Made by a program: the position numbers and the translations under genes. A DNA stretch of 46,029 nucleotides, the filler included, from Jimgerdemannia flammicorona (lineage: Eukaryota), in the NCBI GenBank assembly GCA_003990765.1. It is 2 parts of 2 records of this genome, joined end to end, with 100 filler letters (N's around TTAATTAATTAA, not from the genome) between each part and the next. Parts side by side here need not be neighbours in the genome. Positions count along the whole stretch, not along the records: positions 23,068 to 46,029 come from RBNJ01001177.1; 1 more part is not named here. One strand, given 5' to 3'. Within the stretch, counting starts at the first letter, position 1; each line of letters begins with the position of its first letter. The notes under the pieces were generated by a model. That model had not been told where the DNA came from. It saw only the letters and a program-made list of their open reading frames with translations, and ran no database searches. Shown one piece after another: positions 15,259 through 46,029 of this stretch.

Positions 15259-15307
<49 letters not shown>

Positions 15308-19023: not shown

Positions 19024-19049
19024 AATGAAATACAATTTGTTATCAGTCA

Positions 19050-21056
19050 ATCTCTACTGCTCTATACTCATTTCCTCCTATACTATATCAAGATTATATT
19101 CTGCCATCACCTCCTTCTCTTCAGCCCTCTGAGCCTCCAATCTAGCCAATAGCTCATTCATCTCCCCATCCACCTTCTCCTCAAACTCCTCCCAGTACTC
19201 AATACAAGCCTCCTGCCAAAGCTACAATCCATGATGCTTATTCTAACAGTACTCAGCCCTCTCCCCAGTGACAACTACCATCTCTGCCTCCCGCTCCTTG
19301 TCCACCTCATACCCTTCCTCCTTCAGATACACCACAAGAATTTCTGTCTTTAGCGCCATCATCACTCTATCCCCCTGCAAAATCTGCATCCAGTGCTCAT
19401 CACCCATCACTCACAAGTCCACCTCCCCCAACTCCTCTGCCGCCAGATTATTCATCATCCTACATATCCAAAGTAGGTTCCCCACCTCCTTCCCTCTGGG
19501 GGTCGCTGGCCTCCCTCCATCCAGCATTGTGGTGTCGGCTCCAGTACTTACAACCTCATCCCATACCTCTGGGACATCCACTAGTTCCTCCTCCCTGGCC
19601 ACCATCACCTGTCCCCCATTCATCACCTCTGGAATGCCAAATTTCACCAGATGGGTCCCCAGCATTGTCATGTCCTCCACCATCTTGGTTCTGGAAGCTG
19701 GGCCTCACCTGATAAGAGGGGATGGAGTGGGGGAATTCTCCCAGACCTCATCCCAAACCTCCAAAGTGCCATCAGCATATAGATCACTAATCTTTATCTC
19801 CTTCACCTTCCCTGTCTCTTCCCTGGCATTCCCACTCCTCTCACTAGCCCAGATACTCGCTTTGGTCCCTTCCATACTGGTCATCTTGCTCACATCCTCC
19901 TGGGGTCCACTCTCCAGTTTAGCCAGCAGATCCTTCTGTCTCTTACACCCCTGAGCCCTTTCCCACTACACCTTGTCTATACAAATCCTCTTTCCATCCA
20001 CCACCTCCAGGTATATCAACTCTATGAAAGCCTTCCAAGCCTTTGCTTGCCACTCTACAGTACCATCCAATTCTTCCAGCACTTCCAATAAATCCTCTTC
20101 CTCCTCTTCACTTCCTTTCACCCTCATCACCTTACATAAGATCGCTCCCCAGACCATCACTGTAGGCCAGTCCCTTGCCTTCCCAGTAGCTTCTTTTCCA
20201 ACCAGCCAAATCCTCACATCTATGTCTCCAGTTCTGAGTGAGGTCCCTTCCCAGACCCTGAATCCAATATCTACCATCTCTCCATACTCTGCCATGACAT
20301 CCTCAACTCTCTTTCTCATCTCCATTGCCATCACTGTGGGCACTCCCTTCATCAGCAGTTGGACCACCCTCGGATCCCATTTCAGACACCTCGCCATTGG
20401 AACACACACCTCCCCAACTACCAAGCCAACTTTCAATACCTCCTCCAGTGGCTCAGCCTCCTCAAAACCCACCTCTACACCCTCTAGTCCTTTCAAAAAC
20501 TTCACTGACACGGCTCCTATCACCTGCTTAGCGATAAGCCCCAGTACCATTTTTACTGTCACTGCTAAGCCCCAGAAGCACAGTGTAACCACAAATGCCG
20601 AGATCGATTTTTTAAGTAACAGGGCCACCACCAGGCCTGTCATGCCATCTGCCAAATTCCCTTGTCTTCTAAGCCTCAGCCACTCAGCCTCGCCAATAGC
20701 CATCACATCTGGATTTTTTACCAGATTAGCAGTCCCATCGCCATCAGCAGTCACACTCCCCCCAGCTGCTACTCCCTCAGCTCCACTGCCCCCCTTTCCA
20801 AGGGCTACTCCCCTATATGCCACCACCTTCTCGGTTTCCTTGCCCCTCCTCAGCCAGCCCTCCAGCCCCAATGCCTGCTGCCTCCCCTTCACCATCTCCA
20901 CAAAGCTCGCTCTCCCAGACCCTTGTCTACTACCAATATCTCCACCTCTTCTGTATCCTCCCCCCCCAGACCTGGGCCCCTCCCCACCTGCTGTCATTTG
21001 AAAGTGCTTGGGCCACCCTGCCCAGTACACACCTCAGATTGTCTGTCAGTCACCAT
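19050..21056 (-). pseudogene. LINE ORF1 (Gly/Arg-rich N-terminus, acidic coiled-coil-like C-terminus)
   Basis: ATG at 21056 (MVTDRQSEVCTGQGGP), broken by a TGG-to-TGA change. ORF 19966-21030 is homologous to the host ORF1 pieces 14862-15182 and 21228-21419. End coordinate approximate. Confidence 0.75.
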
Positions 21057-21665
21057 GTTGCTAGTCTCTTTTCTCCAAAAACGATGTTGTAAGTGCCTTC
21101 CAAAGGTTGTATAATCTGAATGGTACCAGAGAAAGATAGTATTAACAGTATTCTTTATCAACTGCCTCACTTTCTCCTTTCTGACAGTTGACAGGTCTAT
21201 CACTATCAGTTGAACTATTCTGGGGTCCTAGTATATACATCTCACTATTAGAACTGCTATTCTCCTGATTTCCAATCCTTTCTTCAAAACCCCCAATAGT
21301 AACTCCTCCTCCTCAAAGCTGATCTCTACTGACTCAAGCTTTTTCAAAAACTTCACTGAGGCCACACCCTTTACTTTCTTAGCTAAGAGCCCCAGCACCA
21401 TCTTTGCTATTACCACCAAGTCTCAAAAGTACATCATGACTGTGAATTCAGATCTTGACTTCTTGAGTAATAGAGCTACCACTAGCTCTATCATACTATC
21501 TGCAAGATCACTAGACCTCATGCCCTTCTCACAGCTCAGTCTACTATCAGCTATTATATATAGATTTTTTCCAGATTGGCAGTCTCCTTGCCATCAGCAG
21601 TCCTGTATACTTCAGTCTTTACTCTCCTAGCTCTACTGCCCCTACTGCCAAGAGCTGCTCCCTTA

Positions 21666-21668
<3 letters not shown>

Positions 21669-23217: not shown

Positions 23218-25013
23218 TCAACAATAGTCGCCCTCTTCTTCGTCCTCGTCCTCCCCGCCAGCCATGCCATAGAAGAACTCGACCTCCAACTTGCCCGTGA
23301 CTACTTCGGGTTCGCTTCCTCTCCCCCCCCTAATTTTCTGCCTAACATCAATGATCCTACCATATGTCCTCCTAATCTCCTTCACAATCACATCCATTTC
23401 TCCCATAGCGCCTTCGCGTGCGTACATGCCAGCCCTAAAATCAATCTCCACGGCCATCTCGAAAAAATTGACCATGGGATCCTGGACCCATTCCTTCCAA
23501 GCGGGATCAACGGCGAGCGAGCGCAGGGTCTGCAGACGGTGGGGGTCATGTTGGGCGGTGTCGCGGAACTGGAGGCGGAAAGCTGTGGAGGAGGTCGTGT
23601 TGTACGCGTGGCGGGAGCGGAGGAAGGATAGGATAGAAGCCGAGAGAAGGAGAGGGCAGGAGGAGAGGGCTAGGGTGTGTAGGTGGGGGAGGTGAGTGAG
23701 AGGCGTGAGGGTTGTGATGGGGAGGGGTGAGACAGGGGTGACGGCGCGGTAGTCCCAGAGGATGAGTGTCGTGAGATTGGGAAGGAAATGGGGAAGGGTC
23801 GAGAAGAGGGGGTCGTTGAAAGTGGCTGGGGGAAGGCAGGGGGAGGTTAGAAATTATGGTCGAAGTTGGCGTCGCGAGTGGGTCATATATATCAATACTA
23901 ACCATGCCATTCTGTGCCTGTCGACATCCAGACCTCGAGCTCCTTCAACCCCGGACAACCTCTCAAACAAGCCTCAAATCCCTCACTTTCAAACCTCCAA
24001 CCACCCCTCCCGCCCCCGTCCTTCCTCAAAAACACCAACCTCCTCAACTTCTCCCTTTTAATCCTCCCCCACTCCACCAACGCCGCATTTGTCAACGTTT
24101 CACAGATACCAAAATGCCATGTCTCTAGTCCCGTACACACTTCACAAAACTCCCTCCACGCTCCCTCATCCTTCTCGATCTCAATCGCATGCGTCACATG
24201 CCCAAGCCTCAGTGCGGGGTACGACGCAAATTCCTTAAGCCTTGGCCCGAGAGTACGCGCGAGGACGGAGAGCAAGCGCGGTTGGTAAACACAGCACGTG
24301 TGGCCGTTCTCGGCCAGGGTGTCAGTGCCGCAGAGGCGGAGTTGAGTGAGGCGGTTGAAGCGGGGGAGGACGAGTTCCAGGAGCGGGAGAGTGGGACCCC
24401 GGACGGGAGTCGGTTGAGTGGAGGGGGCAGGAAGGAAGGTGTGGGTGAGGAATTCTGCCTGGAAGATATCATCGCCTAGGGAGAGGGATTCGAGTGCTGG
24501 ACAGGCGAGAGAGAGGAGATGGAGGAGGTGGTTGGCAGGGAGGCGGTGTTGTGAGGGGATGCGAGATGTGTTGGTGAGGGTTATGACTAAGGATGTGAGG
24601 TGCGGGAGGTGCGATAGTAAGTCCTGCCACGTCTGCGTCTCCCAGCGGAAGAGGATTGATTCCAGATGGTTCGGAAGCGGGATTTTGAAGTGGCCGCGGG
24701 AGCTGTGGTCGTGCTCTGGCTGGAGTCCATCGAGAGCATCAAAGAGGATGTGGAGGTCCGCGACGTTGAGCCCGTGAATTTTGGTGAGTTTGTGGAGAGC
24801 AGATTCGCTGCGCCGCGGGTTATTGGTGGTATCCCAGTGGATAGTGTGCCAGAGGTCGGGGGTGGAGAGCGCGACGTTTGCCCAGTGACGGCAGACCAGG
24901 GAGAGACAGATGAGGGAGTCAACGGGGGGGATCAGGTGGGAGAAGACGGAGGTGAGAATCTCGGGAGGGAGGGAGTGGACGAGTGGGGACTTTATGTTGG
25001 CTTCGGAATCCAT
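23218..25013 (-). CDS. F-box/leucine-rich-repeat protein, about 572 aa, 2 exons (25013-23903, 23825-23218)
   Basis: N-terminal F-box LPPEILTSVFSHL...LSLVCRHWANVALSTPDLWHTI; LRR-like CPALESLSL, CPGLKELEV, LPNLTTLIL. The 77-nt intron 23826-23902 (GTTAGT...CTAAC...CCCAG) joins ORF 23898-25013 in frame with ORF 23218-23475. Confidence 0.88.
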
Positions 25014-26088
25014 AACGTGTTTAAGTCCAAGATGAGATGTAGTCCTCTCACTCGAATATTTGTATATATGGGAGGAAACCCGTCACGGTTGTACAGATTT
25101 GGGCGGGTTCCAAATAGGATGGATCGCAAGTTCGATAGAACTAAATTTGTGAGGTCACTTTTCCCACAAACCGCTCGCGGACGGGGTAAACCCCGAGGAG
25201 TGCAACGATGAGGGGCGAGAGGAGGAGGGTGTGCGGATGCAATTACATTATAGAGAGGGGTGAGGTATTGACGAGTGTATGTACGGCGTGACGCTCATTT
25301 GTTAATCGTCGAGTAGGTGCGTCATGTTCGCGTTGCTAGCGACGAGTTTGTTAGACAGGAGGATAAGATCATGAATGAAGGGTACGTGTTGTCTTGACGT
25401 TCAAAGTTCGACGCAAGGTTAAATTTTAAAGGAAACCAGCGAGACATTTCGCTGATGATGTAACGTACAATTCGAATAGTGTGCATGGAATCTTGGGCAT
25501 CTAGCATTGTGTAACGAACAAAAAGCAAACAACTACAAGCAGACTTGGCGTTTTTGTTTTTTGTTTCACTTCTCGATAGAGGAATCTAAAAATAAACAAA
25601 TACGTTAACGCATCGAGGCAGAACCAAATGGAGGCATTTGTTATTTGTGTGACGGTCGATTGCTTATTGTCAAAGAGGTAGATGATAGTATTAAAGGAAG
25701 TTGATGGCGGGGGTGCTATTAGCTCAGCATTGCCCTTTGTATTCCGCCACATACGCAAAGCCAAACCCGACCGATCTGCATGATCGATCCAAAGAAGTTG
25801 TATATACTCATTGACAGGTACACAGAGCATTATGCACCGAAGTTACGCATACAGAGTCGTACTCTTTGCAGTGTTTACACACTCTCTGAATATCCCGTCA
25901 ATCACGAATTGCGTGTAATTATGATCAGGTGGTCCTTCCCGCCGGGGATCCTGTCCACACTGGTTGTGTTTACAACCCTCAGAAGGAGCAATAGCGTCAA
26001 TCAAACACAACCCCATGGCTCCGTTTGTAGAGCTAAAAAACCCTCCGAAACTACACCTTCAACCACCTTTTTCGTCAACTCTCTATGC

Positions 26089-27213
26089 ATGATGCCCATC
26101 ACCAATCCATACCACCCCTCCCTCCGTACCTTGCTCTGCCTCGCCCTTCTCTTCGTCTTCCTCCTCCCCGTATCCTATGCCCAAACCACCATCGTCCCCC
26201 ACTCCCCGGTCGTGGTTACAACCGCGGTGACGACCACGGTGTTAGTGACGCCGGCCATCATGGTGACGGTAACGCCCGCGGTCATCACAGTGACGGTAAC
26301 GCCCGCGGCCATCACGGTGACGGTGACGCCCCCGGCCATCGTGGTGACGACCACGGCCACGGTGACAGGCGAGGCGGCCACGGTGACGGCCGCGGCGGCC
26401 ACGGTGACGGCCACGGCCACGGTGATGCAGACGCTGATTTCTGGTATCATATCACCCATAGACCCACCATCCTCTACCGCCACCAACCAAAACATCAATT
26501 CCCCCTCCGGCATATCCAGCAACGGTAGCGGGGTGGGGAACGGAAACCTTAGCCTACCGTTGATCATCAGCGTCGGTGTCATCGGTGCGGTCGTCTTGGG
26601 GACTCTAGTGGCGATAGCGATCTTCCTGACGCGACGCCGGCGATCCGCCAACGAAGTCAACTTCGACCCCACCTCTGGTTCCGGCACCCCATCGCTGCCA
26701 ACAGATACCTCGTCTATGCATCGTTCTTTCCCGCCCTCTCCGGTCACCGACATGCACGGCCCAATTCGACCAGGCTCGTCCCCTGTCCCCGCTGGTGCGT
26801 TCTATGGTCCGCCCTGGCCAGCCATGCCGTCGCCGCACTTCCCGCCGTACCAACCGGGAGGCTACTTTGCATACGCCCCCAGAGGTGGCGGGCTGCGTCA
26901 AGCTGTCCCGTACCCGCCCTCATCCCCACTTGCATTCTTCACGCCGTACAACGGTCCCCCCGAGGTCGACATGGGTGAAGCCCACGGCGCGCCCAACTCC
27001 TATACGCCGACGCCGGTGCACGCCAACACAACGTCCCCTCCGCATACGTTTAGTCCCGTGCCCGTGCGTCCAAGAGTTCAGGCGGGGCATGCGCCCTTGC
27101 TACTGTCGCGTGGAGTGCCGAATGGGCTGGAGAACGTGCCCGAAGTGACGGACGGAGGGATAATAACCTCGCCCAGGCCACATTCGGTTGAAGTGGATGG
27201 GACAAGTAACTGA
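26089..27213 (+). CDS. Single-pass type I membrane protein (about 374 aa), Mid2/Wsc-like cell-surface architecture
   Basis: Signal peptide ...LLCLALLFVFLLPVSYA/Q; Thr/Val-rich repeats; Ser-rich stalk; TM LPLIISVGVIGAVVLGTLVAIAIFL followed by TRRRRS; Pro-rich tail; high GC3; no intron needed. Confidence 0.85.
   Translation: MMPITNPYHPSLRTLLCLALLFVFLLPVSYAQTTIVPHSPVVVTTAVTTTVLVTPAIMVTVTPAVITVTVTPAAITVTVTPPAIVVTTTATVTGEAATVTAAAATVTATATVMQTLISGIISPIDPPSSTATNQNINSPSGISSNGSGVGNGNLSLPLIISVGVIGAVVLGTLVAIAIFLTRRRRSANEVNFDPTSGSGTPSLPTDTSSMHRSFPPSPVTDMHGPIRPGSSPVPAGAFYGPPWPAMPSPHFPPYQPGGYFAYAPRGGGLRQAVPYPPSSPLAFFTPYNGPPEVDMGEAHGAPNSYTPTPVHANTTSPPHTFSPVPVRPRVQAGHAPLLLSRGVPNGLENVPEVTDGGIITSPRPHSVEVDGTSN
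26245..26425 (+). repeat. Coding minisatellite, 27-bp unit (VTVTPAxIT) grading into ATVTA repeats
   Basis: gtgacggtaacgcccgcggtcatcaca / gtgacggtaacgcccgcggccatcacg / gtgacggtgacgcccccggccatcgtg. Confidence 0.85.
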
Positions 27214-27930: not shown

Positions 27931-28921
27931 TTTTTTTTTTTTTTTTTTTATAATAAATCTTCAGAAGACTTAATAACATCAAGTAAAGTATACTGATATA
28001 TAAGAAATACTATGATATCATCTATATTATTAGTGATCAAGTTCTTTTATCTACTAAGAATTTTAAGATATATATATAATTATAAGTCAACTATTTATTG
28101 AATAAGTCCTAATTCAAGTTTATTAAACTCTTTAAGATTACAGAACAAGGCTCTACATTCTTCTATTACCTCAAGCTATCTGAAACTATATGAGTATATC
28201 TAGTCTTATATATATATATATTATATCTCAAGATCTAAAACTAGTTACTATCTTACTCTAGTCAAATTTTCAAGCCATCTGTCTTTGTAATTATTAAAAA
28301 CTATATTAAGTATAAGGTTGAGAAAATTTGTGACAAAAGAATTTACTATTACTAATCTAAATATCTGATCAAATAGATAAGCTATCTTAAATATAATATT
28401 ATCTAAGAACTGCTAGTCAATCTTAAGAATATATAAGATCTCATTTAAGACTTTAAGACAAAATATATACTACTTACTAGCTTGATATACTTTTATATAT
28501 AGATATAGTTACTATTAGTAAGCTTACTAAATCTTCAACTACTAAGTCTTTGGCTCTTATTTTATATGAAGTTAGTCAACTCTTTATAATAATATCTGAA
28601 TAAGTTTGAGAAATTTTAATTAAGTATAGCTATTCTTATATAACCTTAGAATTTAATGAAAATATTGATTCTTAAAGAAAGAGAAATACAATAATTTCTT
28701 AACTATATCTTAGTTAAGTATATTTTTATATTCTTTCTCTAATCTTTTCTTATCTTTTTCTGAATATTTTATAATATTTCAATATCTTCTAAATACTTAA
28801 AAAAAATTTCTTAATACCAAGACTTTATTAGAACCTTTTTATCTTTTCTCAATACTAAGTATCTTATCTTAGCTAGTTATAGAATCTTTTAGAATATTGT
28901 AGAATTCTATTAGTTATCTTT

Positions 28922-29330
28922 TGTAATATTTTAGCATAGTTTATTTCTTTTCTTTTCTTTGTCTTTCTTCAATATTCTACAATCTTCCAGTACTTTCTGA
29001 ATGCTTAGAAATCCTTTCTTGGTGCTGAGCATCCTCTAGTACTTATTTAGCTAGTCACTGAATGTTCTGAAAACTTGTAGAACTTTATTTGTCATTATTT
29101 ATCATCTTTGCTGAGAACTTTCCTCTTGGCATCTTCTTTTGATTTCTCAGATCCTTCCAGATTCTTCTTTCAGATCTTGTATAAATATCTCCTTTGTTCT
29201 CATAAATAAAGTCTTAGAATATTTTCTCTCAGAAATCCTTCAAGAATACTTGAATTCTTAAGTATCTCTTTAAGCTACTTAAAACTACCAGAACTAGTCA
29301 CTTCCTCATTTAGAAACTAGAACTGTTATA
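28922..29330 (+). repeat. 5' LTR (409 bp)
   Basis: Direct repeat of 34536-34944; TATA (gtataaata, about 29179) and AATAAA (about 29205). Confidence 0.95.
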
Positions 29331-29398
29331 CTTAGTAGCAGCAGTTAAGTTATACCTAGCCTTATCAAGACACCTCTCAAGATATCAGTCACAACACT

Positions 29399-32300
29399 AT
29401 GGAGGACAATGGATGGAACCCTTCATACAGTACCTACAGTCCAGGCAATACCTCATACAACTAGCAAGAAGAAGAGAAACAGCAAAACCCTACTCAGTCA
29501 AATGGAGCTATTGAGAGTCTTTTGCAGACTGCATTAGCTCAGATTGCCCAACTTCAAGAATACATAGAAAGAAAGAAAAGCAAGGCCCCTGCTCATACCT
29601 CTGTATCTCCATCAATATCAATACATCCAACAGCAGTTACTATCAAGCCTCAGAAGCCTGACACTTTTGATGGTCAAAGAGGAGAACTGTCTACTGATGC
29701 CTGGTTTTTCCAATTGGAGCAATATGGAGAACTGACCAATTTGGAAGAAGCAATACTAGTCCAATTTGCTGCCACACTCCTCTGCAATCTGGTAGTGAAA
29801 CTATGTCTAGAATACCAGATTTGCTGGCTGGATCAGGACCTGGAATGAATTCTCTGATGCTGTTCAAGGCCAATTCAAACCAGTCAATAGTACTAAGGCT
29901 ACACAAGACCATCTGGCAAATATCAAACAACTCAAGTCTATACAAGCATATAATGCACAATTCCTATCAATCCTGCTTGAATTACCACATATCACTGAAG
30001 ACGAGAAGGTTGACAAGTATATCTGAGGCCTGAAAGGTCAAACCTGAGTTCATATTGAACTAGAAGAACCCAAGGACCTAGATATAGTAATGAAGATTAC
30101 TGATAGGTTTGATGTCATCACCTATAGTCACTGCTTTAAACAGAAGAGACCGCCTTTCAACAACAACCACAAAAGGGAGGAACCTAAAGTCAGAACTATT
30201 GGACCTGCCCCCATAGATCTAGATACTATCAACAAGAGCAAGAAAGGCAAGCTTACATCTAAGGAAAAAGAGTGCCTCAAGAAGGCTAGAGCCTGCTTCT
30301 TTTGTCGTCAGCCTGGTTATATTGCAACCAAATGTCTCAAGAAAACTGCCAAATCAAAGAGGATTCTGGTCCTGTCCAAAGATACCCAAGGTCAACCAGT
30401 TGAACAAGAAGTGGTACTCAATTTTATACAAGTCAACCCCAAGATCCAGATCCCTCAAGTATAGTCAGAAGGAGCCATTGGTTTGGACCTTTAAGCAGTA
30501 CAACAAGTCACTATTCCTATACATGAAAGAAGGCTCATTCTAACTGGCCTTTCAGTCAAAATTCCCAAGGAATATTATGCAAGAATTGTATCAAGATCTG
30601 GCCTCAGTTTCAAGCACTCATTGGATATTAGTGCTGGAGTCATTGACCCTGACTTCTGAGGCAAAATGCAAGTCCTACTAGTCAACTACAAGAACCAACC
30701 ATATACTGTCAATGAAGGTAACAGAATTGCACAGCTCATTCTGGAGTGAGCCATCCTATCAGTCATCAAAGAGGTCACCAAGCTGTCTTCAACCAAGTGA
30801 GATTAGAAAGGCTTTGGCAGTACTAATAAAGTTATAAGTATAGCCAAGAACTGAGCCAATTTAATGCTCATTTTCAAAGGCCTAGTCAAGGGACAAGAGC
30901 TAGATATTCTCATAGACAGTAGAGCTGTTGGGAACTTCATCAACAAGAATCTCATTGACAAGCTCAAGATTCTCACCAAACCAGCCAGCAAGAATGGTGG
31001 AGTTATCACTACAGATGGCACCACCTTACCAATTGACTCAATTGCTGCTAAACTCCCTCTCAAGATCCAGAAGTACTGGGAATGTTTAGATTTTGAGGTA
31101 GCACCACTAGGAGACCATGACCTGATTCTAGGCAAACCCTGGTTTATATGATACAACCCTCAGATTAATTGGACTAAGAATGAAGTCACCCTGATTCAGG
31201 ATGGAACCAACATTACCATCAAGCCAGACAAGACTCAGATGAAAACCCCAATTGCTACCCTTTCAGCAATTCAGTTCAAGAAGACCCTCAAGAAAGCTAC
31301 CTGTATCTTTGTAGCACTGATCTGATCAAAGAAAGAAGATAAGAAGCTATCAATTAGTGAAAGCATCAAGTTACTGCTGAATAAGTACAAGGATGTCTTT
31401 CTGGACAAACTATCTGGTCTACCACCTTCAAGAGACCATAACCACGAAATCAAGTTGGTACCTGATGCAGCTATACCTAAGAAGAAAATGTACCACATAT
31501 CTCTACTTGAAATTGAAGCAGTCAAGAAGGAACTCAATGAACTCATTGAGCAAGGAGCCATTCAGCCAAGCAAGTCACCCTTTGGCTCCCCAGTCCTATT
31601 TGTCAAGAAAAAGGATGATACTCTGCAAATGTGTATAGACTACTGAGCACTCAACAAGATCATAGTCAAGAACCATTATCTGCTACTGCTCATAGATCAA
31701 ATCTTTGATGCTCTCAAAAATACAAAGTACTTCACCAAGATTGATCTCACCTCTGGGTATCACCAAATTCGAATCAAGTCAGAAGACATACCCAAGACTG
31801 CCTTCATGACACCCTTTGGACTCTACAAATTTCTAGTCATGGCCTTTGGTCTCACCAATGTACTAGCAATCTTTCAAGATCTCATGCAGACTGTCTTCAA
31901 GGATCAGCTCTATATCTTTATACTTATATACATTGATGATATTCTGATCTTCAGTAGTACTGAAGAAGAATACCTCAAGAATATTGAACAAGTCCTCAAG
32001 ATCCTCCATGAGAACAAGCTCTATACAAAGCTCAAGAAATATGAATTTTTCAAGAATCAAGTCAAATATCTTGGACACATTGTATCAGCCAAAGGAATTC
32101 AAGTAAATCCAAGGAAAATACAAGCCATTGAACAGTGGTCTGTACCAGCAAACCTCACTGAACTCAGGTCCTTCCTTGGTCTGGCTGGATACTACCATTG
32201 ATTTGTCAAGAACTTCTCTAGTATCATAAAATCTTTGACAAATCTCCTGTGAAAGGAACCTAACTCTGACCTCTATGTCCCCTATATCTGAAATACTTTC

Positions 32301-34220
32301 TGTAAACAAGCTTTTCAAGAACTCAAGAACTGCCTGACTCATGCATCTGTCCTTAGAAACATGGACCCAAACTTGAAGTTCATGGTCACTATAGATGTAT
32401 CTAACTTTACCATTAGTATAGTCATTTCTCAAGATAATGGTCAAGAACACTGACCTATTGCCTTTGAGTCAAGAAAATTGTCCCCAGCTAAACAAAAGCT
32501 GGCTACTCATGAAAGGAACTCCTAGCAATCATGCATGTCCTCAAGACCTAGTAATACTACTTAGAAAGAGTTGAGTTTGATGTGATCACTAATTACAGAT
32601 CTCTTTAGTACATCAACACTCAACCAATCCTTTCTCACCAACAAGCCAAGTGGAGTCAACTACTTCAGACCTTTACCCCAAACATCATCTACAAGCCTGG
32701 CAAAACTCTAGTTGTACCAGATGTACTTTCAAGAAGACCTGACCTTGCCGCAATTTTACAAATTACCATGGTACCCAAATTCCTCAATCAGATCAAGAAG
32801 ACATACAAATAAAACTCTCTGGTTCTACAAAGGAACACCAAGGAATTCAAGAAAAAGTACACCATCAAGAACAACCTTATGTACTATCAAGACAAAATAT
32901 ATATTCCTACCAACCCTGAACTACAGTATAAGATTCTTCATAAACACCATAACTCCCCACTAGCTGGCCACCTTGGAACTGAGAAGACCATCAAGAATAT
33001 CCAATGAGACTACTACTGGCCAAACATACTCAAGGAAATCAAGGAGTATGTCCAAAGCTGTGATCTTTGCCAAAGAAACAAGTCAAGCAATCAAGCACCT
33101 GCCAGTCTTCTGCAACCCCTGCCAATTCTAACCAAGAAGTTCAAACAAGTCACAATAGACTTCATTATATAACTCCCACAAATCAAAACAGGCTATGATA
33201 CTATTGTTGTATTTGTGGACTATCTCACCAAGATTACAATCACTGAGCCAACCACAACCAATGTCACTATCTCAGAAATTGCAAGAATCTTCTTCAAGAC
33301 TATCTTCTGCCATTATGGACTTCCCTGAGTAATTATCAGTGACCATGATCCCAAGTTCACAAGCCACTTCTGGCAAGTACTCTTCAAGATCCTTGGAATC
33401 CAAATTGCTATGTTCACTGTCTTCCATCCTCAAACTGATAGACAGACTGAGCAAATGAACAGAACACTCGAACAAATGCTCAGAAACTATATGTCTTATG
33501 AGCAAGATGATTGGGACCACTATCTGACCTATGCTGAGTTCATCTACAATAATGCCACCCAATCATCAACTGGCCTTTCTCTATTTCAGCTACTTTATGG
33601 TCAAAACTCCAAGACCCCTGCAAGCCTAGTCTCATTCCAGCAATCCAGTCACACACAAGTCCCCACAGCCCAGAACCTTATCAACAAAATGGATTCTCTT
33701 TTCAAGATCGCCACTACAAATCTACAAAAGGCTCAGTAATATCAAGCTAAGTATACAGATAAGAAGCGGCGAGATATCATATACAATATTGGTAATATGG
33801 TTCTACTCAAAGCCAACAATATCAAGGCTCAATCTTAAGTCAATCACCAGTCAGCCAAATTCCAGCCCAAGTACCTTGGACCCTTTGAAATCACCAAGTA
33901 AGTCTCCACCTAGTCTTACTGCCTCAACCTGCCAACAACCATACATATATACCCAGTATTTCATATGTCACAACTCAAGACCTGGAACCAGTCACCTCTT
34001 TACCCTGGCCAAATTCTGACACTATCAGCACTAGTGATAGTTGAAGACCACATCGAGTATGAAGTTGAGAAAATCTTAGACAAATGAGTCTAATACCATT
34101 GCACAGAATATCTAGTCAAGTAGATAGGTTACCCTGAATATAATGCTACCTGGGAATCTGCCACCAATCTCAAGAACTCTTAAGATCTCATCCAAGAGTT
34201 CAAGCAAAAAGAAACTCATT
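29399..34220 (+). pseudogene. Degenerate gag-pol polyprotein
   Basis: KPDTFDG; knuckle CFFCRQPGYIATKC; protease ILIDSRAVGNFI (ancestral DSG) and LILGKPW; RT SPFGSPVLFVKKKD, IYIDDILI, YLGH; integrase HNSPLAGHLG, CDLCQ, HPQTDRQTE; chromodomain EYEVEKILDK...ATWE at about 34055-34160. Confidence 0.93.
30425..30824 (+). pseudogene. dUTPase domain between zinc knuckle and protease
   Basis: GAIGLDL...TGLSVKIPKEYYARIVSRSGL...AGVIDPDF*GKMQVLLVN...GNRIAQLIL...KGFGST; same frame as the 30090, 30864, 31455 and 31806 ORF pieces. Confidence 0.93.
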
Positions 34221-34535
34221 GACTGCCCATGAGGTTCTCTCCTTAGATAGTAGATGATATATTATGCTAATCAGATATATTAAGTATCAGGGCACTCTAA
34301 AGGATACAGTATCAGAAATAAGAGATATAGGAGAACCCTATAAATCCTGCAACCAATGAGGTTCAAACCAGTTCTCATCTAATCAAGATGATACTTTGGC
34401 CCTTGCCTTATACAAGGATGGCCAATCCTTACCAATGAGCCAACATATTTTGTTTGAGATTTCTTTTAGTCTTATTGTTTATTATATGTAACTTTAAGAA
34501 TTCAATAGAGATATTGATTCTTAAGAAGGGGGAGA

Positions 34536-34944
34536 TGTAACATTTTAGTGTAGTTTATTTCTTTTCTTTTCTTTGTCTTTCTTCAATATTCTATGACCTT
34601 TCAGTACTTTCCAAATGCTTAGAAATCCTTTCTTGATACTGAGCATCCTCTAGTATTTATTTAGCTAGTTACTGAATGTTCTGGAAACTTGTAGAACTTT
34701 ATTTATCATCATTTGTCATCTTTGCTGAGAACTTTCCTCTTGGTATCTTCCTTTGATTTCTTAGATCCTTCCAGATCCTTCTTTCAGATCTTGTATAAAT
34801 ATTCCCTTTGTTCTCATAAATAAAGTTTCAGAATATTTTCTCTCAGAAATCCTTCAAGAACACTTGAATTCTTAAGTATCTCTTCAAGCTACTTAGAACT
34901 ACTAGAACTAGTCGCTTCCTCATTTAGAAACTAGAACCATTACA
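34536..34944 (+). repeat. 3' LTR (409 bp)
   Basis: TGTAAC...TTACA, direct repeat of 28922-29330. Confidence 0.95.
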
Positions 34945-35181
34945 TCTTTACTAAAAACTATTTTTTTGGCTTTTTTTTTTTTCATTTTTAAGATTCTTCC
35001 AGATTTTTCTTTCAGATCTTATATAAATATTCTCTTTCTCTGCTTAAATAAAGATCAGTTTATTTTCTCTAAAAATCTTTAAGACTACTTAAACCTATAA
35101 GTATCTCTTTAAGCTACTTTAAGACTACTAGAAAACTTTCAGATTTAGCTATTTTCTTTTAAAAAAACTAGAACCATTATA

Positions 35182-37080
35182 GATTTACTTAAACTTCTTA
35201 ATAAAAATTAGTAAAGGCTAAAGTAAACTAACTGGTACTTAGTTACTGGACTTGTTATTAGTATATATAGATCATAACTAGTAATATAGTTTTTGATTTT
35301 CTTGATCATATTATATCAGTAGTAGTAGCATTGAAAGTTTTTAATAGTTTTCTCAATTCTAAGATATATATCTAACAAATAGAGAGTCATAATATTCTTA
35401 TAATATTTTATAATAGAGTTTTATATTACTTAATAGATCAGATTGTTCTCAATAGTATATATATCCTTGAGCTTATTTAAGAAAACTCTAATAGTGATAG
35501 TGTCTTTTTTATAGACTTATTTAATTTAGTTTAGAAATTCTGATACTAAGATAACTTATATTATTATAGTAAGATCTGAATATTATAATAAGATATCTAG
35601 TATTCTAAGTATCTTATCAGACTTATATATAATTATTAAATTGAAGGTTTGAAGCTTTTGATTCTATTTAGCTTATTGATATAATTAGTACTCTCAAATA
35701 AATGATTTAAATCAATTTAAAGTAAATATATATGGTATTCAAATTGAATTAATTCAATTCAATTCAAATATTATTTTGATTTCCAAATTATTACAAACAT
35801 TTTCCTCAATAACTTTATAAGATTTTATCTGATTTTGATATAACTAATATTATTAGAAAGCTCTCTATAATGGCTTTTCAATAATATCAAGAGTACCAAA
35901 ATCAGATAAAATCTTATAGAGTTATTGATGAAAATGTTTGTAGTCTAATTTAGAAATCAAAATAATATTTAAATTGAATTAAATCAATTTGATTTGAATA
36001 TTATATATATCTACTTCAAATTGATTTAAATTATTTATTTGAGAGTACTAGATATGATAAAGTAGATTGAATATTAATATACTTGAGAGATTTATATATA
36101 ATTAATAATGATATCAAACTCAATACCTTCTAGATAGTATCTTTAGTAATATATATAAGATATATATATATGATTATTAGTAGTTTCTTCTCATAGATAG
36201 CTAACTCTTATTCAGCTAGTAACAGTTTTTATAACTCAAAGATAATGAGACTATATATATTTTTTTTCAAATTTAAATTAGAATTTTACAGAACTGGGAT
36301 ATTGGTCAGATAGTTTTGGAGTTTTTGAAATACTTATTGATAAAAGATATTCCAGATATATGTAAGATATATATATAGTATTCTGTATATAGTATCTTCT
36401 TTATTATATTTATAAGAGACTTAGCAATCTTAGAAAGTTTCTAACAAAGTAACAGTAATAGCCAGTTAGATTAAGAAAGGATCTAAGTTCTGTAATATTC
36501 ACTAGTTCAAACTATTCTTGAATTATCTCTATCTTATATGGGTCTATTTGAATTCCTTATACAGAGACAATATGGCCAAGATATTTAACTTACTTCTTAA
36601 AGAATTTATACTTCTTGAGTTTAATATATATATAACTTATATTCTCACAGAATTTTCAAAACAAAACAGATATACTTGAGATGTTCTTCTTTAGTTATAC
36701 TAAAGATCAGGATGTCATCAAGATATACCAACAGAAAAATAAAAAGTTGGTCATTGAATATCTTGTTTATGAGAGTCTGAAAAGTAGCAGATATATTGGA
36801 GACCAAATGCTAAAACCAGAAATTTGTAAAGTCAAAAAGAGATCATAAAAGTAGTCTTTGGATATTTTCTGACTTGATTCAAATTTGGTGATATTCAGAC
36901 ATGAGATCTAGTTTAGTGAAGTACTTGGCATTCTTGAGAGCATTAAAGATTTAATCAATAAGAGGTAATAGATACTGGTTCTTGACTGTAAGCTTGTTGA
37001 GTATATGGTAGTCTATATATTCACAGAGTTCTATCCTTTTTCTTGACAAAAGGACTGGTGAGCTGAAGGGTGACTTGCTG
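35182..37080 (-). mobile_element. Degenerate Gypsy pol remnant (RT, RNaseH, start of integrase) related to 28922-34944
   Basis: Reverse complement of about 36980-37080 aligns with about 31568-31680 (SKSPF-SPV, DY--LNK); about 35410-35640 aligns with about 32685-32905; interrupted by a MITE. Confidence 0.8.
35686..36050. mobile_element. Foldback MITE (365 bp), hAT-like
   Basis: tagtactctcaaataaat...atttatttgagagtacta; the arms pair along almost the whole length with a loop of about 11 nt near 35862-35872; 8-bp TSD gatataat / gatatgat. Confidence 0.88.
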
Positions 37081-37417
37081 GGGGGTTGGAGTTGGAGTAT
37101 TGTTCACGCATCCAAGAATCGGACAGCATTTGAAGGGTCTAGTTCGACCAGAGAGTCGTCGGCACGCAGAGGTCCCTTGCATTTCTGGCATACGAGCTGC
37201 TAGTGTCGTGGGTGGTCGTGGTCAAGAAAGCAGCAGTAGCTGGGATGTTACAGTCATCGGCAGGTCATGTGCGGCCAAGAGAGTTGCATGGTGTTAATTA
37301 TGTGTGGTCCCATGTTGGGACGGCAGCTTTTTATTTTGCCTTGCCAAATGCTTTCCGTGTTCGGATGCACGATTAGACACACACTATTCGACAAAACATA
37401 CTTCCAACACATCTTCG

Positions 37418-40220
37418 TCACCACTCCACCACCACCACAGTATGTATCTCCACTTTCTCTAGCTCCACATCCACATACCCCTCTTTCATCTTAAACTCCA
37501 CCTCCTCTTCCTCCGGAGCCAGATATACCCTCCTCGGCAGCCCCCACCCCTCCGCATCCAATAATCGGAATCCTACCCCGGTCACACTCCATCCCTGATC
37601 CACATGCGGCTTCGATTGCCACGTCCGGCGCGGATGGTATGCCACGATGTGCACGATCTTGCGCTTGCACGTACCCAACACCTGCACATGCAAACTGAAC
37701 TCCATCCATCCAGGCGCCCGCGGCACGATCAACCTGCGCGGCATCCAGTCCTCCAACGCCGCCAGCACGATATCGCGGTAGCACCAGTAGTCGTTCCGCA
37801 TGAAGCTTCCCAGAAGCGGTGCCGCGAAGTACAGCACGGATGGATCGCGGACCACGATCGGCGAGCCAAGCGAGTCTCCAACGGGTGCATGCGCGTGCGA
37901 GGTCAGGTGCTTCCAGGTGCGGTTGAAGAGCGCCTGGCTGAGGGTGCCAAAAGATTCGGCGGTACTAGTGGTGGGCTCGACAACGTGCGCCGTGTCGTAG
38001 AAGACGTAGTCATAGTCGCATGAGAGCTCCGAGCTCGGGAGCCGCGTCAGGAATGTGTCCAGCCGCAAGTAGCTTGGCGTCGTCGGCGCCGGCGAGACGT
38101 ACCGGACGGGGACGGCAGGGATGTCGTTCTTGACCGCTGTGCCGCTCAGGATCAGCTTGCCCCCCCGAGCGATAAACTCGGTGATCCGGTCTCTCAGGTC
38201 GTCGCTGATCAGCGACCCATCTGAAAGGACCAGCATCTTGTACTTATCCGCAATGGGAGTCGTCGCCTCGATGACGTCGAACTGTACTCCCCTCTCCAGG
38301 AACATCTGTGCCGCTCCATTCAGGTCCGAAAAATGAGCCGAATTATACTTGTCCCAGTCCTTCCCCGCCGGATCCATGTTTCCGACGGCCAACAAAGCCA
38401 CCTCCGCCTCGGTGACCGCGCCGTTCAGCCACGGTTCCAGAGACTCGATCTTACCGAAGCATTTGCCGATCAGCGTGTACACCGCTGGGTCTAGGACCCC
38501 GTGAGGGTGCAGCTGATCGCCGACGGAGATGAGGCCGCCAGCTGCCACAATCGTGCCGACCTCATATTCGAGTTGGTGGCTTGTTTTGATACCGCCGAAG
38601 TCGCCCCACGCCTGGAGGTGGTGGGTTATGAGGATGCATATTAGATCATAAAAATGAGCGATGGGTGCAAGATGCAAAGGACGAACGAGAGCCAAGAATA
38701 TTAGCCTTGGGTCTCACTTTGTGAAAGCGACCGGTCATCCCGAGAAATAGATATTTTGTGGTTCGAGCCTGGCGGGACATCACGGCTGTATGTCGAGAAA
38801 ATACGGTTAGTCGCAGATTGCATAGAGAGGGACTAAACGTGTAGATTTTGAATTGCGGATGGATCATAAAGATCGAGAGAGACAATACTCACGATACCTC
38901 ATATAACCCTACACATTCGAATATTATGATGCGCGCAACTATTAGTAAACGGTCATTGATACAAATCAAAGCAAGCAACAAAAACACATTCAATATTATT
39001 ATTGAAAAGTGAATTATCACCCAACCACCAGTTGGCAGGCTGTATAGGAAGATTAGAAACATGGGGTTAAGCATACACATCATGGCGGATCTGACGATAC
39101 GACCTCCAAACCACTTTCACACTCAAGTCATATGAAACCCTCGTTTCATTACACCTTATTATTATCATTTTTTCTGAAAACATAAAAACCGGAAACGACG
39201 GCATACCTCTCAATCTCCAAATGAGTTTGGTATGGCAGCATTAAATTCAACGTGGGCTTCACCGAGGAATTATAAAATATACTCGCATCCGGCCTCGCCT
39301 TTAACACCACATCCGACAGCCTCTTCACATACGCGTAATACTTCACACGCACATACTCCCACACCGCCCCATCGTTGTCGATCTCGACTCCCTCGGAGCG
39401 CATCCTCGCCTGGCTCATCGCCGAGTAGTTTGTCTGCGGTGCGCAGATGTCGAAGAAAAACCCGTCGACGGCGTCGCCATACATGTCCAGGATCTCGCGC
39501 ACCTGCGACACCAGGTACTCGCCGTACCCTGTGAGCACGTCCACGTGCGCCCAGCCGAACATGGCTGTAAGAGGGGGGCGGATCTTGGCGATGCCGGATT
39601 TCTCGACGACCACCCATTCGGAGTGGATTTCGCCTGACAGGCGGGGTTTAGATGTAAGGTGGGGGTTAGATGTAAGGTGGGTTTGGCGACTCTGGACGTG
39701 TTAGGGAACGAAGAAATGAATAGGCAAAACTCACCAGCATAATCATCCCAGTTCATGGTCAGATAGATTGGGGCTCTTGCTCCCACTGAGTGCAATGCCT
39801 CAATCTGAGCGCCGAGAAGATCGAAGTCGAGATAAGGGTGCATTTTGCCAAACTTTGTGGGATAGTAGCTATATATCCACGAGGATCGATGTGAACACCA
39901 TAAATGTTCAAATTCTCACAAATCGCGCTTTACAAAGCAATCTTCACACATACCTGAAGCCATGATGACTGTTAACCAGCAAACAATTGTATTACATCAC
40001 TATGTTATTGGTAGGAATAAACACGAAGCACACACATCGGCGCCCAAAATTGCCCATACCACTTTGCGAAAACTGTCATCGAGTTGATATGCGCGTTTTT
40101 GACCGTCTGGGCAAAGGTCTCCTTGTCAAAATCCCGACCAACGTTTTCGCACGTAGGCCCGGTGTGGAAATCCAGGTGGACCTGTCGACGACATTTGGCA
40201 AAGGGGATGGAAGGTCGCAT
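37418..40220 (-). CDS. GH151-like alpha-L-fucosidase (GHL6-type TIM barrel plus beta-galactosidase trimerisation-like domain), about 677 aa, 8 exons: 40220-40060, 39968-39954, 39868-39735, 39633-39207, 39039-39021, 38908-38893, 38785-38718, 38611-37418
   Basis: Spliced motifs RQVHLDFHT, FAKCHHGFSYYPT, DLLGAQIEALH, DGFFFDI, HLEIESLPTGGWGY, GMTGRFHKAWGDFGG, SVGDQLHPHG. All introns are GT-AG; exons total 2034 nt and stay in frame. Confidence 0.87.
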
Positions 40221-41555: not shown

Positions 41556-41904
41556 GTAATAGATACTATTTATTTTAATATTAAAGCAACTTAGATAGAA
41601 GATTAAAACTAAGACTAAGAAGATAAAGAAAATCTTTTAGAGAATTAACTCTATATAACTATAATATTAAAATAGATAATATCTTTTCAAGATAATAAAT
41701 ATGTATCTATAAAATAAACTATAATTATATATTAGACTATCTCTCTAGACCCTTAATAGTTATTATAATAACTAGCTTAAAGAACTTCTACTCATTTAAT
41801 ATGTATCTGATCTATAAACTATACTAGTAATCTCAGTATAATTAATAGTAATACTAGTATCTAAACCACAACTACTAGTAGTTAATATAGTAATAGATAA
41901 CTAG

Positions 41905-43442
41905 TATAACGGTGACTCCGGAATGATGATATCAGCACAGAAGACAGCCTTTCCTTACAAGCCACCAGATCGAAGCACAAGAAGATCATACGGCATACGA
42001 GATGAGTAATAATGACCAACTGTGAGTCATTGTGACCACAGCACAAGCATCCTGAAGAATATAAAAGAAGGATCAAGGAACCACAGTAGCAGTAACCAAC
42101 AAGAACCACCAATCCCAAAATAGCTCAAAGACTTACCACAAATAAAATACCTACTGCCCACCAAACCTCAAGGTCAAGGAACCATTAAGGAATCTCGGTT
42201 GAAGAAAGGATGTTCCAAGACATCAGAAGAGCCATGCAGACCCGCTCAAGAAGGACTCCTAGTGTCAACCTGGGTACTGCAGACCCCTATCACTTCATCC
42301 TCTACTGCCGTGAAATGGAAACAAGGATCACCATCACCACCAAATGCCTCCAAATGTAGCAGGAGTACGAAATAGGAAACCTCCTCTGCCGGGAGTTCCC
42401 ACAGGCCAGCACCCAAGAGCTACAAGATGCCACTCCCATGGATATACGTGAAACGAGGACAGCTAAGAAGATCCATCAGATCTTCAGGCATGCACCATGG
42501 TCGATTCCCAACTTGGAGTATATTAGAGTCTCAGATTTCAGAGACCTGTCATCTCGCCGCATCAATGCACTAGAAGCCAGGGTGGCTACAGAAGCCCAGT
42601 CCACTATCACCCTCAACAGTGAAGAAGTAGAAGACTTCTGGCACCCCATCCTTCAGGACAACCCAGACCAATTCCTGCAAGGATTGATCTCAGTATTCCA
42701 AGGCCTAAACATCTGAGTTAGATTCCCCCAAGACCCCACATTTGTCCCCTATTTTGTGGAAGAGAACCTCATAGATTGGAGAGCTCCAAATCTTGTCCCC
42801 GATTTCCCCGCCGAATGTGATGACGTCATCGGCGATGACATCATCCCGCACGACATACCCGAGGTATGCGAGACGCGCGACCTGTATGATGAATTCGTGG
42901 ATCTCATCTCCTTCAGTGATGATGATGATGATGAAGCCCCCATGGTCCTGAACTTTCTGCTCTAAGTTCTTTGTTACACTGGATAATACCAGCACCGGTA
43001 TTCTCATGTAACACCAGATAATACCAGCACCGGTATTCTGAGGTGACGCGAAATTGTTCCAGCACCGGCATTTTGATGTAACACTGGATAATGCCAGCAT
43101 TCTAAACCTGTACAACCAACAATACTAGCCCTGGAACTTAGTAGTTTTAGTTATTGGAATTTATATTTAGCTTTATATCTTAGCAACCATTAAATTATAT
43201 TTTGTATAAATACCCCTCTTATTTCCTCTGAAATAAAGTCAGTCTTCTCAGTGCAATATACATACTTCCTTGCAAGCAATCTAAGAGATAACAAGACAGT
43301 TAAAGATAAGAAGTTTGAGAACTATAAGACCTTGGGAAGGCACTCCAATAAGAACTTGCTTATAACAACTTGAGTTAGTCTAAGAGATACACCTTGAAGA
43401 GAATCTGGCATATTTGAAGGACTCAGCGACCACTACGTGATA
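41905..43442 (+). mobile_element. Solo-LTR-like element (1538 bp) with an internal ORF, copy 1
   Basis: Ends tataac...gtgata (TG...CA mutated); flanked by ctag (41901-41904, 43443-43446); host sequence resumes colinearly; TATA at about 43204, AATAAA at about 43232. Confidence 0.8.
42147..42965 (+). pseudogene. Unknown LTR-internal ORF, copy 1
   Basis: ORFs 42438-42716 and 42756-42965 share one frame; its internal stops are sense codons in copy 2; start is ATA here and ATG in copy 2. Confidence 0.7.
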
Positions 43443-44330
43443 CTAGATATAGACTCTTATAGTATATATATATATCTATAATAGTTATAATAATTACTCA
43501 GCTAACTAAATAGATAAGCTAACTAAAAGCTTAAGTCTCTCAATCTTTCATAGTATCTTTCAGAAAATCATTAGTTTTATTAATATTAAAAATACTAACT
43601 TCAAAGCCAATTAATAAATAAATAAAAGAATCTCAGATTACTTTCTAATAAATAATTAAGACCATATCCTTAAATAATCTTTTATTATAACTATATCTAA
43701 TATTTACTGAGTTATATATTATATTTTTTAGAGATTTAACTAAAGAATAGTAGTAAACTCTTTTAGACAAATATCTTATATAGAATATTTATCTAGTAGT
43801 AGTTGTTTAAGTTAGACAAAATAACTAATCTAGTTATATAAGATAACTAAGAAATATTTATATTATATTTAATAAATCTTACAGAAGTTGAAAAAATATA
43901 CTGTTTATCAAATTAAAGAAATATAAGTTTACTGAAATTGAAATTTTCTATCTAGAATATATTATTAATTAGACTAAAACTCATAAACTCTATCAAAATT
44001 CAGACTATAACAGCTTATCTAAGACTTACTATAGCTATATATAAAGCCAGAGTCTTTATAGAACTTATTACTTACTATAGAAGATTTATCAAAATTCTCT
44101 AACATTGTAAGCTCTATCTATGATTAGTTCAGAAAAGATATTAAATTTAAATAAACTAATAAGTAATAATAAATATTTAATTAATCCAAATTAGATTGAT
44201 CTAGATATCTATCTTAAGAAGACCCAACTAATCTAAAGAATTTATTTTTCAGATAAATATAAGCTCAATTAGACTAGAAGTAGTTTTTATATATATAAAG
44301 AAAAATAAAGTAGAATATATGATTATATAT

Positions 44331-45770: not shown

Positions 45771-46029
45771 ATCTTTCTCCGGTAACATTCAGGTTACACA
45801 AGACTCAGACAACACTTTCTACAACGTTTTTGGTGTCCAGCGACTAACAACATGGACGGCAATGATCGATCTGGTGAGTGTACTGGCCAGGGAGGTGGTG
45901 GCGCCTTTGGCTGGCAGCAGGTGGGGAGGAGGGGAGATGGTTTGGGGATGCCAGGGGCCTCGATGGCTAGCCGGGGCCCCAGCGGCGGGGGAAGGGGAGG
46001 TCTGAGGCAGAGAGGAGGGGAGAGGACAA
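45771..46029 (+). mobile_element. LINE 5' end (5' UTR and Gly-rich ORF1 start), continues beyond the window
   Basis: atctttctccggtaacattcaggttacacaa matches the 5' end at 21137(-); ATG 45852 gives MDGNDRSGECTGQGGGGAFGWQQVG. Confidence 0.85.

Follow-up and report, generated by a model that had tools for sequence, protein, structure and literature searches.

The window is the whole 46,029-nucleotide stretch of DNA analysed here, including a contig join at 22969-23068, and its host was named as Jimgerdemannia flammicorona (Endogonales, Mucoromycota) via the glycosyl hydrolase gene at 37418..40218. The host is therefore not a Dikarya species with canonical RIP, the situation that the initial annotation had set against its own suggestion of RIP-like hypermutation. 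J. flammicorona is an early-diverging mycorrhizal fungus, and repeats make up 73% of a published assembly of the species. The genes and repeats of the window are as follows.

4001..10421, + strand: second LTR element, sitting within the 3' end of an L1; LTRs 4001-5514 and 8909-10421; target site duplication (TSD) TAGAC/TAAAC from TGGAC
15276..21668, - strand: younger L1-type LINE, APE and RT, poly(A) tail
23218..27213: unmutated control region, F-box/LRR gene (- strand) and membrane-protein ORF (+ strand), CpG o/e 0.93
27955..28463, + strand: old integrase relic; young C to old T at CpA 38/51, CpC 11/12, CpT 16/48
28706..28921, + strand: older LTR belonging to the gypsy element's family, left half, far more AT-rich; split by insertion of that element
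28917..28921, + strand: left TSD TCTTT
28922..29330, + strand: 5' LTR, Ty3/gypsy chromovirus-type, 409 bp; 0 CpG remain of ~9 expected
29333..29344, + strand: decayed primer-binding-site-like motif; TGG and CGG in the run X7 copy, TAG and CAG in the window
29399..34222, + strand: broken gag-dUTPase-protease-RT-RNaseH-integrase-chromodomain polyprotein (dUTPase ~30444-30824, protease 30870-31199, RT 31602-32084, integrase 32912-33421, chromodomain 34058-34210)
34523..34535, + strand: polypurine tract
34536..34944, + strand: 3' LTR, 409 bp; 33 transitions from the 5' LTR, 1 CpG remains
34945..34949, + strand: right TSD TCTTT
34945..35133, + strand: right half of the older LTR; young C to old T at 13 sites, young T to old C at 0
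36305..37082, - strand: old RT relic, GC 0.41 at the gene-facing edge falling to 0.22 inside
37418..40218, - strand: spliced, unmutated glycosyl hydrolase gene (GHL6 and beta-galactosidase trimerisation domain), CpG o/e 1.09
41902..45775, + strand: third repeat pair (copies 41902-43371 and 44328-45775), 134 transitions, 6 transversions

The element at 28922..34944 is a Ty3/gypsy chromovirus-type LTR retrotransposon, as LTRs, a 5-bp TSD, a polypurine tract, the protease-RT-RNaseH-integrase order and a chromodomain are all present. Its polyprotein changes frame near 32514, and 30 in-frame stops lie in the two pol segments counted. The L1s are non-LTR elements as annotated earlier, with APE and RT both identified. 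A shared TSD was looked for around the third repeat pair and none was found, so this pair may represent two separate insertions.

Differences between repeat copies

By eye, the initial annotation had counted about 33 differences between the LTRs of the gypsy element, all transitions and with no indels, and a global alignment of 28922-29330 with 34536-34944 gave exactly 33 transitions, 0 transversions and 0 gaps in 409 columns. Nine of these sites are CpG-linked, namely 4 CA/TG doublets (8 sites) and 1 CG/CA site, and the reported decay of CpG in opposite directions is seen as tagCAtag/tagTGtag at 28935-28936 and aacTGtta/aacCAtta at 29324-29325. The remaining 24 lie outside CpG, in line with the earlier remark that many would: 13 are CpA, 7 are CpC-type (6 CpC plus 1 preceding a C/T site) and 4 are CpT. 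Decay of the TSD of the second element was also borne out, with TAGAC at 3996-4000, TAAAC at 10422-10426 and TGGAC at that place in both intact L1 3' ends. The claim that stop codons in all elements derive from CGA, CAA, CAG or TGG was examined in the gypsy element and held for most stops there: 11 of 13 stand opposite R, Q or W of an intact relative and can be reached by C>T/G>A, 1 can be read as a CGA whose two strands decayed differently, and 1 needs a transversion. The remark is nearly tautological because any stop is one transition away from CAA, CAG, CGA or TGG.

The probability of 33 transitions in 33 differences is 1.5e-6 assuming a Ti/Tv of 2. For the 24 non-CpG sites alone it is 6e-5 at Ti/Tv 2, 0.01 at 4.75 and 0.10 at 10, so the 409-bp pair by itself is only moderately strong evidence. 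The LTRs of the second element differ by 154 transitions, 2 transversions and 1 gap, which brings the two TSD-flanked pairs to 187 transitions and 2 transversions. When the three repeat pairs were pooled, 245 of 319 classified transitions were non-CpG, against 8 transversions (P = 1.7e-12 at Ti/Tv 4.75). The background value comes from the single-copy glycosyl hydrolase gene (38:8, Ti/Tv near 4.75), a control that is coding, small and itself high in Ti/Tv. CpG decay plus background Ti/Tv, which the initial annotation had named as an alternative that would refute it, falls short: CpG decay covers 9 of the 33 differences, and the non-CpG excess outlasts this control. CpG-only methyl-decay of the basidiomycete or vertebrate type was rejected on the same proportions (24/33 and 245/319 transitions non-CpG).

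The pairs of L1 with L1 and of young elements with relics (607:88, 137:49, 140:79 and 124:56 transitions to transversions) were not pooled for Ti/Tv and served for direction only, as their transversions predate insertion. Differences fall evenly on the two LTRs of the gypsy element (18:15) and of the second element (70:84), whereas the third pair is unbalanced (47:87) and was omitted from the clock estimate for that reason. Run tests found no strand or copy tracts; none were found in 7 ascomycete-type pairs either, so the test does not discriminate.

Direction and sequence context

The excess of C:G to T:A changes in repeats is directional and spares genes. Compared with an intact family member, P0241, the gypsy element shows 91 amino-acid differences that require C>T/G>A on the window side and 3 that require the opposite change; compared with P0121 the counts are 47 and 1. 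The same polarity test gave 5:9 for the neighbouring gene against P0002 (Fisher p=1e-7 for 91:3 versus 5:9). CpG o/e is 0.055 in the gypsy element and 0.93-1.09 in the genes. In the L1 at 15276..21668 together with the adjoining L1 piece to 22960 it is 0.12 with GC still at 50%, and the L1 pair 21669/15276 has no net direction of change. The load increases with element age, CpG being lost first and CpA/CpC afterwards, and the relics end at ~22% GC.

The context ranking is CpG >> CpA >= CpC > CpT. In the two TSD-flanked pairs there are ~1.2 hits per C at CpG, 0.22 at CpA and 0.23 at CpC. The mutated fraction depends on the 3' base (CpA 139/478, 0.29; CpC 53/252, 0.21; CpT 35/492, 0.07; p=9e-18). 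No effect of the 5' base on the mutated C was detectable (p=0.28), and dependence on the 3' base without dependence on the 5' base is compatible with a methyltransferase footprint. The initial annotation had described the process as broad-context; this stands insofar as CpA and CpC are clearly affected, but the process is not context-free, as CpG is fastest and CpT is largely spared. The per-C rate at CpA/CpC is at least ~120 times the per-site transversion rate, a clock that depends on 2 events, and the lower bound on Ti/Tv is ~26. Standard indices register little of this: the composite RIP index of the gypsy element is -0.54, the index is above 0 in 20 of 91 1-kb windows, and 1 of the 91 passes strict RIP cut-offs.

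Family copies in other data

The comparison with other runs used contigs of 4 of 10 listed runs, small-share holders from which no strain or habitat is claimed, with totals by change type. Family copies in the independent DNA run X7 gave 379 transitions and 18 transversions; runs X1 (322:50) and X2 (226:19), whose cover is part TE and part gene, were excluded as controls. Near-intact family copies (P0121, P0241) occur in related samples. A metagenome scan for DNA of close family members returned 42 loci, none of them close (best-segment identity 30-57%), and two viral_contigs scans gave no match.

Discussion

The best reading of the spectrum, direction, repeat restriction and build-up with age observed here, given about an even chance of being correct, is a mutator coupled to methyltransferases (DNMT1 and a DIM-2-like enzyme) that acts repeatedly on repeats and is nearest to Zymoseptoria tritici Dim2 mutation. 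Cytosine methyltransferases would mark repeats, and conversion of a marked C to T would far outpace that in ordinary methylated DNA. The near-total CpG loss could be due to a DNMT1-type CpG enzyme and the CpA and CpC changes to a DIM-2-type enzyme, with CpT as a poor substrate; both strands and both copies would be affected repeatedly and cumulatively, at CpG and then at CpA/CpC, down to ~22% GC, with genes spared. The methylation, the enzymes, a conversion that is enzyme-coupled rather than passive, and any defensive role are all putative. The process behaves like Dim2-dependent RIP-like mutation, and to equate it with canonical RID-dependent RIP would go beyond the observations. Phycomyces has both DNMT1 and DIM-2, and RID and DNMT5 are reported lost in non-AMF Mucoromycota; a species-level table of RID/Masc1 presence was not found in the published supplements searched.

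The Z. tritici mutator, as described in the available portion of PMC8016269, is similarly repeat-restricted and almost purely C>T (>95% of mutations during mitosis). However, Dim2 mutation there is >98% at CpA and spares CpG, whereas CpG is fastest here and CpC is about equal to CpA, so two processes are needed. The same portion of PMC8016269 gives CA and then CC as the most methylated CHH contexts with Dim2, and CT as almost unmethylated; the mutation order CA, CC >> CT seen here thus parallels a methylation order and not a mutation order. In a review table DIM-2 of Neurospora prefers CpT, the opposite of the order here.

Second in probability, though unlikely, is true RIP, in which homology of duplicated DNA would be sensed ahead of meiosis (zygospore formation) and the repeats would undergo bursts of mutation by a DIM-2 or RID-like enzyme, with ordinary CpG decay in addition. 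As in canonical RIP of Neurospora crassa and other Pezizomycotina, which depends on RID and DIM-2 (PMC11969663, PMC12543289), the changes are C:G to T:A only, on both strands and in repeats only, with AT-rich relics as the endpoint and a Ti/Tv of ~40. The same measurement on LTR pairs whose host is probably a member of Pezizomycotina gave 307:8, indistinguishable in Ti/Tv from 321:8 here. Endogonales form sporocarps filled with zygospores, according to the available portion of PMC5729711, AMF are reported to keep RID, and old Neurospora repeats undergo RIP without RID via DIM-2 (PMC11969663). A weak hint in the same direction is that CpC changes are more frequent in the linked LTRs than in the internal, dispersed region (uncorrected p=0.023; p=0.23 for CpA and 0.94 for CpT). 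Against this, the top target is CpG and not CpA, the younger elements score below zero on the standard indices, the host lies outside Dikarya in a group from which RID is reported lost, and both J. flammicorona and Endogone were scored 'no_rip' in the 2025 kingdom-wide screen of Badet and Croll. The absence of strand or copy tracts also counts against true RIP, with little weight.

Passive deamination of densely methylated CG, CA and CC during a long dormancy, with inefficient T:G repair, very few background replication errors and no dedicated mutator, ranks third and is likewise improbable. It would fit a rate order that matches a methylation-level order, changes spread evenly over both LTRs, a load that rises with age from CpG onwards, a chromatin-boundary-like weakening at the gene-facing edges of two relics, and a gene control whose Ti/Tv is already near 4.75. 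However, against the lower bound of ~26 here, Ti/Tv is 1.2 in Arabidopsis TEs and no more than 2.8 in wheat TEs despite their heavy methylation (431 transitions, 156 transversions; PMC2996936), the latter significantly different from the 187:2 found here (p=5e-19). Moreover, non-CpG sites, which are usually lightly methylated, change at ~1/6 of the CpG rate. 

AID/APOBEC-like cytidine deaminases usually show a 5'-base preference. Editing of retroelement cDNA or genomic single strands by such an enzyme would yield only C>T/G>A changes, many outside CpG, but it is very improbable and was rejected, as the LTR differences arose after insertion and on both strands, the 5'-base preference is not detectable, and LINEs show the effect just as LTR elements do. 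Least probable of all, and also rejected, is an artefact of specimen DNA damage or repeat mis-assembly: the assembly is fragmented, but genes are untouched, TSDs and nesting are coherent, and the same transition excess recurs in X7.

Several other fungi offer partial parallels. TE decay in Tuber melanosporum also strikes CpG first and CpA second, in an ectomycorrhizal genome very rich in TEs, but Tuber is an ascomycete with RID and Dim2, and the available portion of PMC4352252 describes no strong CpC component. Basidiomycete CpG/TpCpG decay (Microbotryum, rusts), as far as the available portions of PMC4352252 and PMC3318451 describe it, shares the strong loss of CpG from TEs; here ~3/4 of differences are non-CpG and no TpCpG preference was seen (5/11 vs 17/29, small n). 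Zoophthora radicans (Zoopagomycota) likewise has a RIP-like signal beyond Dikarya, derived there from dinucleotide indices with the authors' own caveats (PMC11105155) and here from polarised LTR pairs that such indices mostly miss.

RIP-type mutagenesis has been regarded as a trait of ascomycetes; the outcome seen here, obtained from LTR pairs directly, is no less extreme than that of a probable ascomycete. It is possible, though doubtful, that Endogonales have a genuine repeat-recognising mutator without RID and with a CpG/CpA/CpC footprint. If so, RIP-type defence would either be older than Dikarya or have evolved on two occasions, and standard RIP screens based on CpA would miss it, since CpA/TpG are replenished by CpG decay. 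Near-intact family copies and a repeat content of 73% suggest that, if this is a defence, it is leaky, and how 73% repeats were reached despite such a mutator is a further question. For the group, neither insertion dates estimated from LTRs nor RIP calls made from indices would be dependable, and the locus offers an entry to the age of RIP and to whether DIM-2-type enzymes may act as mutators without RID.

Results

The two LTRs of the gypsy element (28922..34944, Ty3/gypsy chromovirus-type) differ by transitions only, as the initial annotation had claimed: 409 aligned columns (28922-29330 against 34536-34944) hold 33 transitions, 0 transversions and 0 gaps. LTRs of one element have the same sequence when it inserts, so these differences arose in the chromosome. 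Many were also said to lie outside CpG, and 24 of the 33 do (13 CpA, 7 CpC-type, 4 CpT), with 9 linked to CpG (4 CA/TG doublets, 1 CG/CA). The features of the window are as follows.

4001-10421, second TSD-flanked element, non-autonomous, whose LTRs are very long at 1514 bp; it carries gag, dUTPase and protease together with a chromodomain-like start, and no RT or integrase was found in it
22969-23068, N-run / TTAATTAATTAA / N-run spacer joining two contigs, adjacency across it not being assured
27543-27950, 35681-36055 and 41227-41555, mutually related AT-rich long imperfect palindromes (8-18% GC in 300-bp bins), probably decayed MITE-like elements
27955-28463, old integrase relic
28922-34944, gypsy element, TSD TCTTT/TCTTT flanking both ends, polypurine tract, broken polyprotein (gag-dUTPase-protease-RT-RNaseH-integrase-chromodomain), nested within an older LTR from its own family
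29331-29699 and 34866-35234, LTR end and leader, on which very many short contigs of two runs (X1, X2) are stacked (summed depth 400-3600); these possibly reflect family LTRs being transcribed, or copies in DNA, which contigs alone cannot distinguish
30444-30824 and about 7570-7950, dUTPase between gag and protease in both LTR elements
37418-40218 (-), spliced GHL6/beta-galactosidase-trimerisation glycosyl hydrolase, single-copy
41902-45775, third repeat pair

The LTRs of the second element show 154 transitions to 2 transversions and the third pair 134 to 6; the two TSD-flanked pairs combined give 187:2, a Ti/Tv lower bound of ~26. The proposed TSD decay was borne out: where the duplication now has TAGAC and TAAAC, both intact L1 ends read TGGAC. 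Stops had been described as derivatives of CGA, CAA, CAG or TGG, which is nearly tautological. Judged against an intact relative, 11 of the 13 stops in the gypsy element arose directly from R, Q or W codons by C>T/G>A.

When the three pairs were pooled, differing C sites made up 24/44 of CpG (with a further 50/74 at sites followed by a base that itself varies A/G), 139/478 of CpA, 53/252 of CpC and 35/492 of CpT, and the last three classes differ from each other (p=9e-18). No effect of the 5' base on mutation was detectable (p=0.28). Hits per C per copy in the two TSD-flanked pairs were ~1.2 for CpG (a rough value), 0.22 for CpA, 0.23 for CpC and 0.04 for CpT. Hits were distributed evenly across copies and strands, and no strand- or copy-biased tracts were seen in the window pairs or in ascomycete-type pairs; since the latter lack tracts too, their absence does not separate mechanisms.

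Two near-intact gypsy-family proteins from metagenome contigs gave the direction of change: P0121, 88% identical, and P0241 from the same cluster. Against P0121 (444 codons) there were 53 differences, of which 47 need C>T or G>A in the window, 1 needs the reverse, 1 is mixed and 4 require a transversion; against P0241 (771 codons), there were 91 forward, 3 reverse, 3 mixed and 10 transversion differences. When the hydrolase gene was compared with P0002 in this way, the counts were 5 forward, 9 reverse, 1 mixed and 6 transversion, which differs in polarity from the P0241 comparison (p=1e-7). Reverse-direction control sites changed in 2/476 cases.

Composition forms an age series from young L1 (GC 0.50, CpG o/e 0.12) through gypsy interior (0.40, 0.05) to relics (GC 0.22, CpA 0.67, CpC 0.58, CpT 1.72); genes stand at 0.59 and 0.96. 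The gypsy element has 12 CpG where 217 are expected, and in the gene regions on its flanks 286 were counted for 309 expected and 211 for 194. C loss is still greater in older relics, with young C read as old T at 38/51 CpA, 11/12 CpC and 16/48 CpT in 27955-28463. Borders of mutated DNA are sharp at the 300-bp scale, and two relics are less damaged on the side that faces a gene. Because 18-27-nt tandem repeats in a membrane-protein ORF (26234-26446) retain all CpG, short coding repeats escape the process.

Independent DNA runs served as controls. Run X3 (gene cover only) differed from the window by 38 transitions to 8 transversions, balanced in direction (21:17), though this control is coding and small and its Ti/Tv of 4.75 is high; run X7 (mostly element cover) gave 379:18. 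Against X3, the 24 non-CpG differences of the gypsy LTRs are borderline (p=0.044), while the pooled non-CpG count of 245:8 is clearly higher (p=9e-4, Fisher). For a positive comparison, distant metagenome gypsy loci yielded seven distinct LTR pairs, which gave 307:8, with duplicates (L012, L018, L023, L026) dropped and gapped matches in L016, L039 and L041 left out. Their host is probably an ascomycete, since the named relatives of the PKS adjoining L018 are in Pezizomycotina. Transition-only pairs occur at L005, L010, L012, L015, L018, L019, L020, L022 and L025. Their context (CpT 0.30, CpA 0.19, CpG 0.60) is unlike that of the window; CpC is essentially erased, with 4 shared-context sites left and 16/16 altered among those that precede a C/T difference.

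The suggestion of an early-diverging fungal host was correct. Hydrolase exon 37421-38626 matches two Jimgerdemannia flammicorona proteins, at 100% and 95% identity, and Endogone sp. at 82%, which places the host in Endogonales, Mucoromycota. One further match stands at 80% and all others at ~50%; the named, non-Endogonales ones among these are bacterial (Chloroflexota, Rubrobacter); by these matches the gene is likely a bacterial transfer into Endogonales.

Discussion

The window feature is real, directional and repeat-restricted. Its outcome is RIP-like, and that part of the initial annotation stood. It lacks the CpA preference of canonical RIP, CpG being hit far more often than CpA. The survey of Badet and Croll 2025 covers Endogone and J. 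flammicorona, the latter with 231 Mb and 73% repeats, scores both 'no_rip' and calls such signatures unique to ascomycetes (PMC12543289). Its supplement rows list TATA as 4.0-fold enriched in non-coding DNA and 0.76 in annotated repeats. The most decayed relics may lie outside repeat annotation, and CpG decay would refill CpA/TpG; the composite RIP index of the gypsy element is -0.54. RIP-like signals outside Dikarya have precedent, since an index-based signal is reported for Zoophthora radicans (PMC11105155). Among the Jimgerdemannia papers listed, neither the titles nor the abstract openings covered mention the pattern, though the original Endogonales genome paper may do so; the terms RIP, methyl and transpos are absent from the fine-root-endophyte genome paper (PMC12574304), and Jimgerdemannia is named in neither the PMC8298701 nor the PMC12344493 supplements.

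The 3'-base-dependent, two-strand, repeat-restricted C>T load would point to cytosine methyltransferases. We favour, at about even chances, a putative coupled mutator, DNMT1 together with a DIM-2-like enzyme, that would act on repeats again and again. Homology-triggered premeiotic RIP would share the repeat restriction but is rather unlikely given the CpG excess; Neurospora old repeats are reportedly RIPed without RID via DIM-2 (PMC11969663), and AMF are said to retain every one of the five methyltransferase types, with DNMT5 and RID lost from their sister clades (PMC8298701). Passive deamination with poor repair and low background is about as unlikely: methylated wheat TEs show 431:156 transitions to transversions (PMC2996936) against 187:2 here (p=5e-19), and Arabidopsis TEs are reported at a Ti/Tv of 1.2 (PMC4352252). 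A deaminase is very improbable, and an artefact is the most improbable reading of all.

The closest functional match to the window pattern, by analogy, is Zymoseptoria tritici Dim2, which at CHH sites is reported to methylate CA most, CC next and CT hardly at all, and to make mitotic mutations over ten times as numerous, with >95% C>T (PMC8016269). However, >98% of the new mutations there fall at CpA, with CpG spared, unlike the ~1.2 hits per C at CpG here. DNMT1 and DIM-2 are both reported in Phycomyces (PMC7862722, PMC13297926), and in Jimgerdemannia a putative pair of this kind may have mutated repeats over and over.
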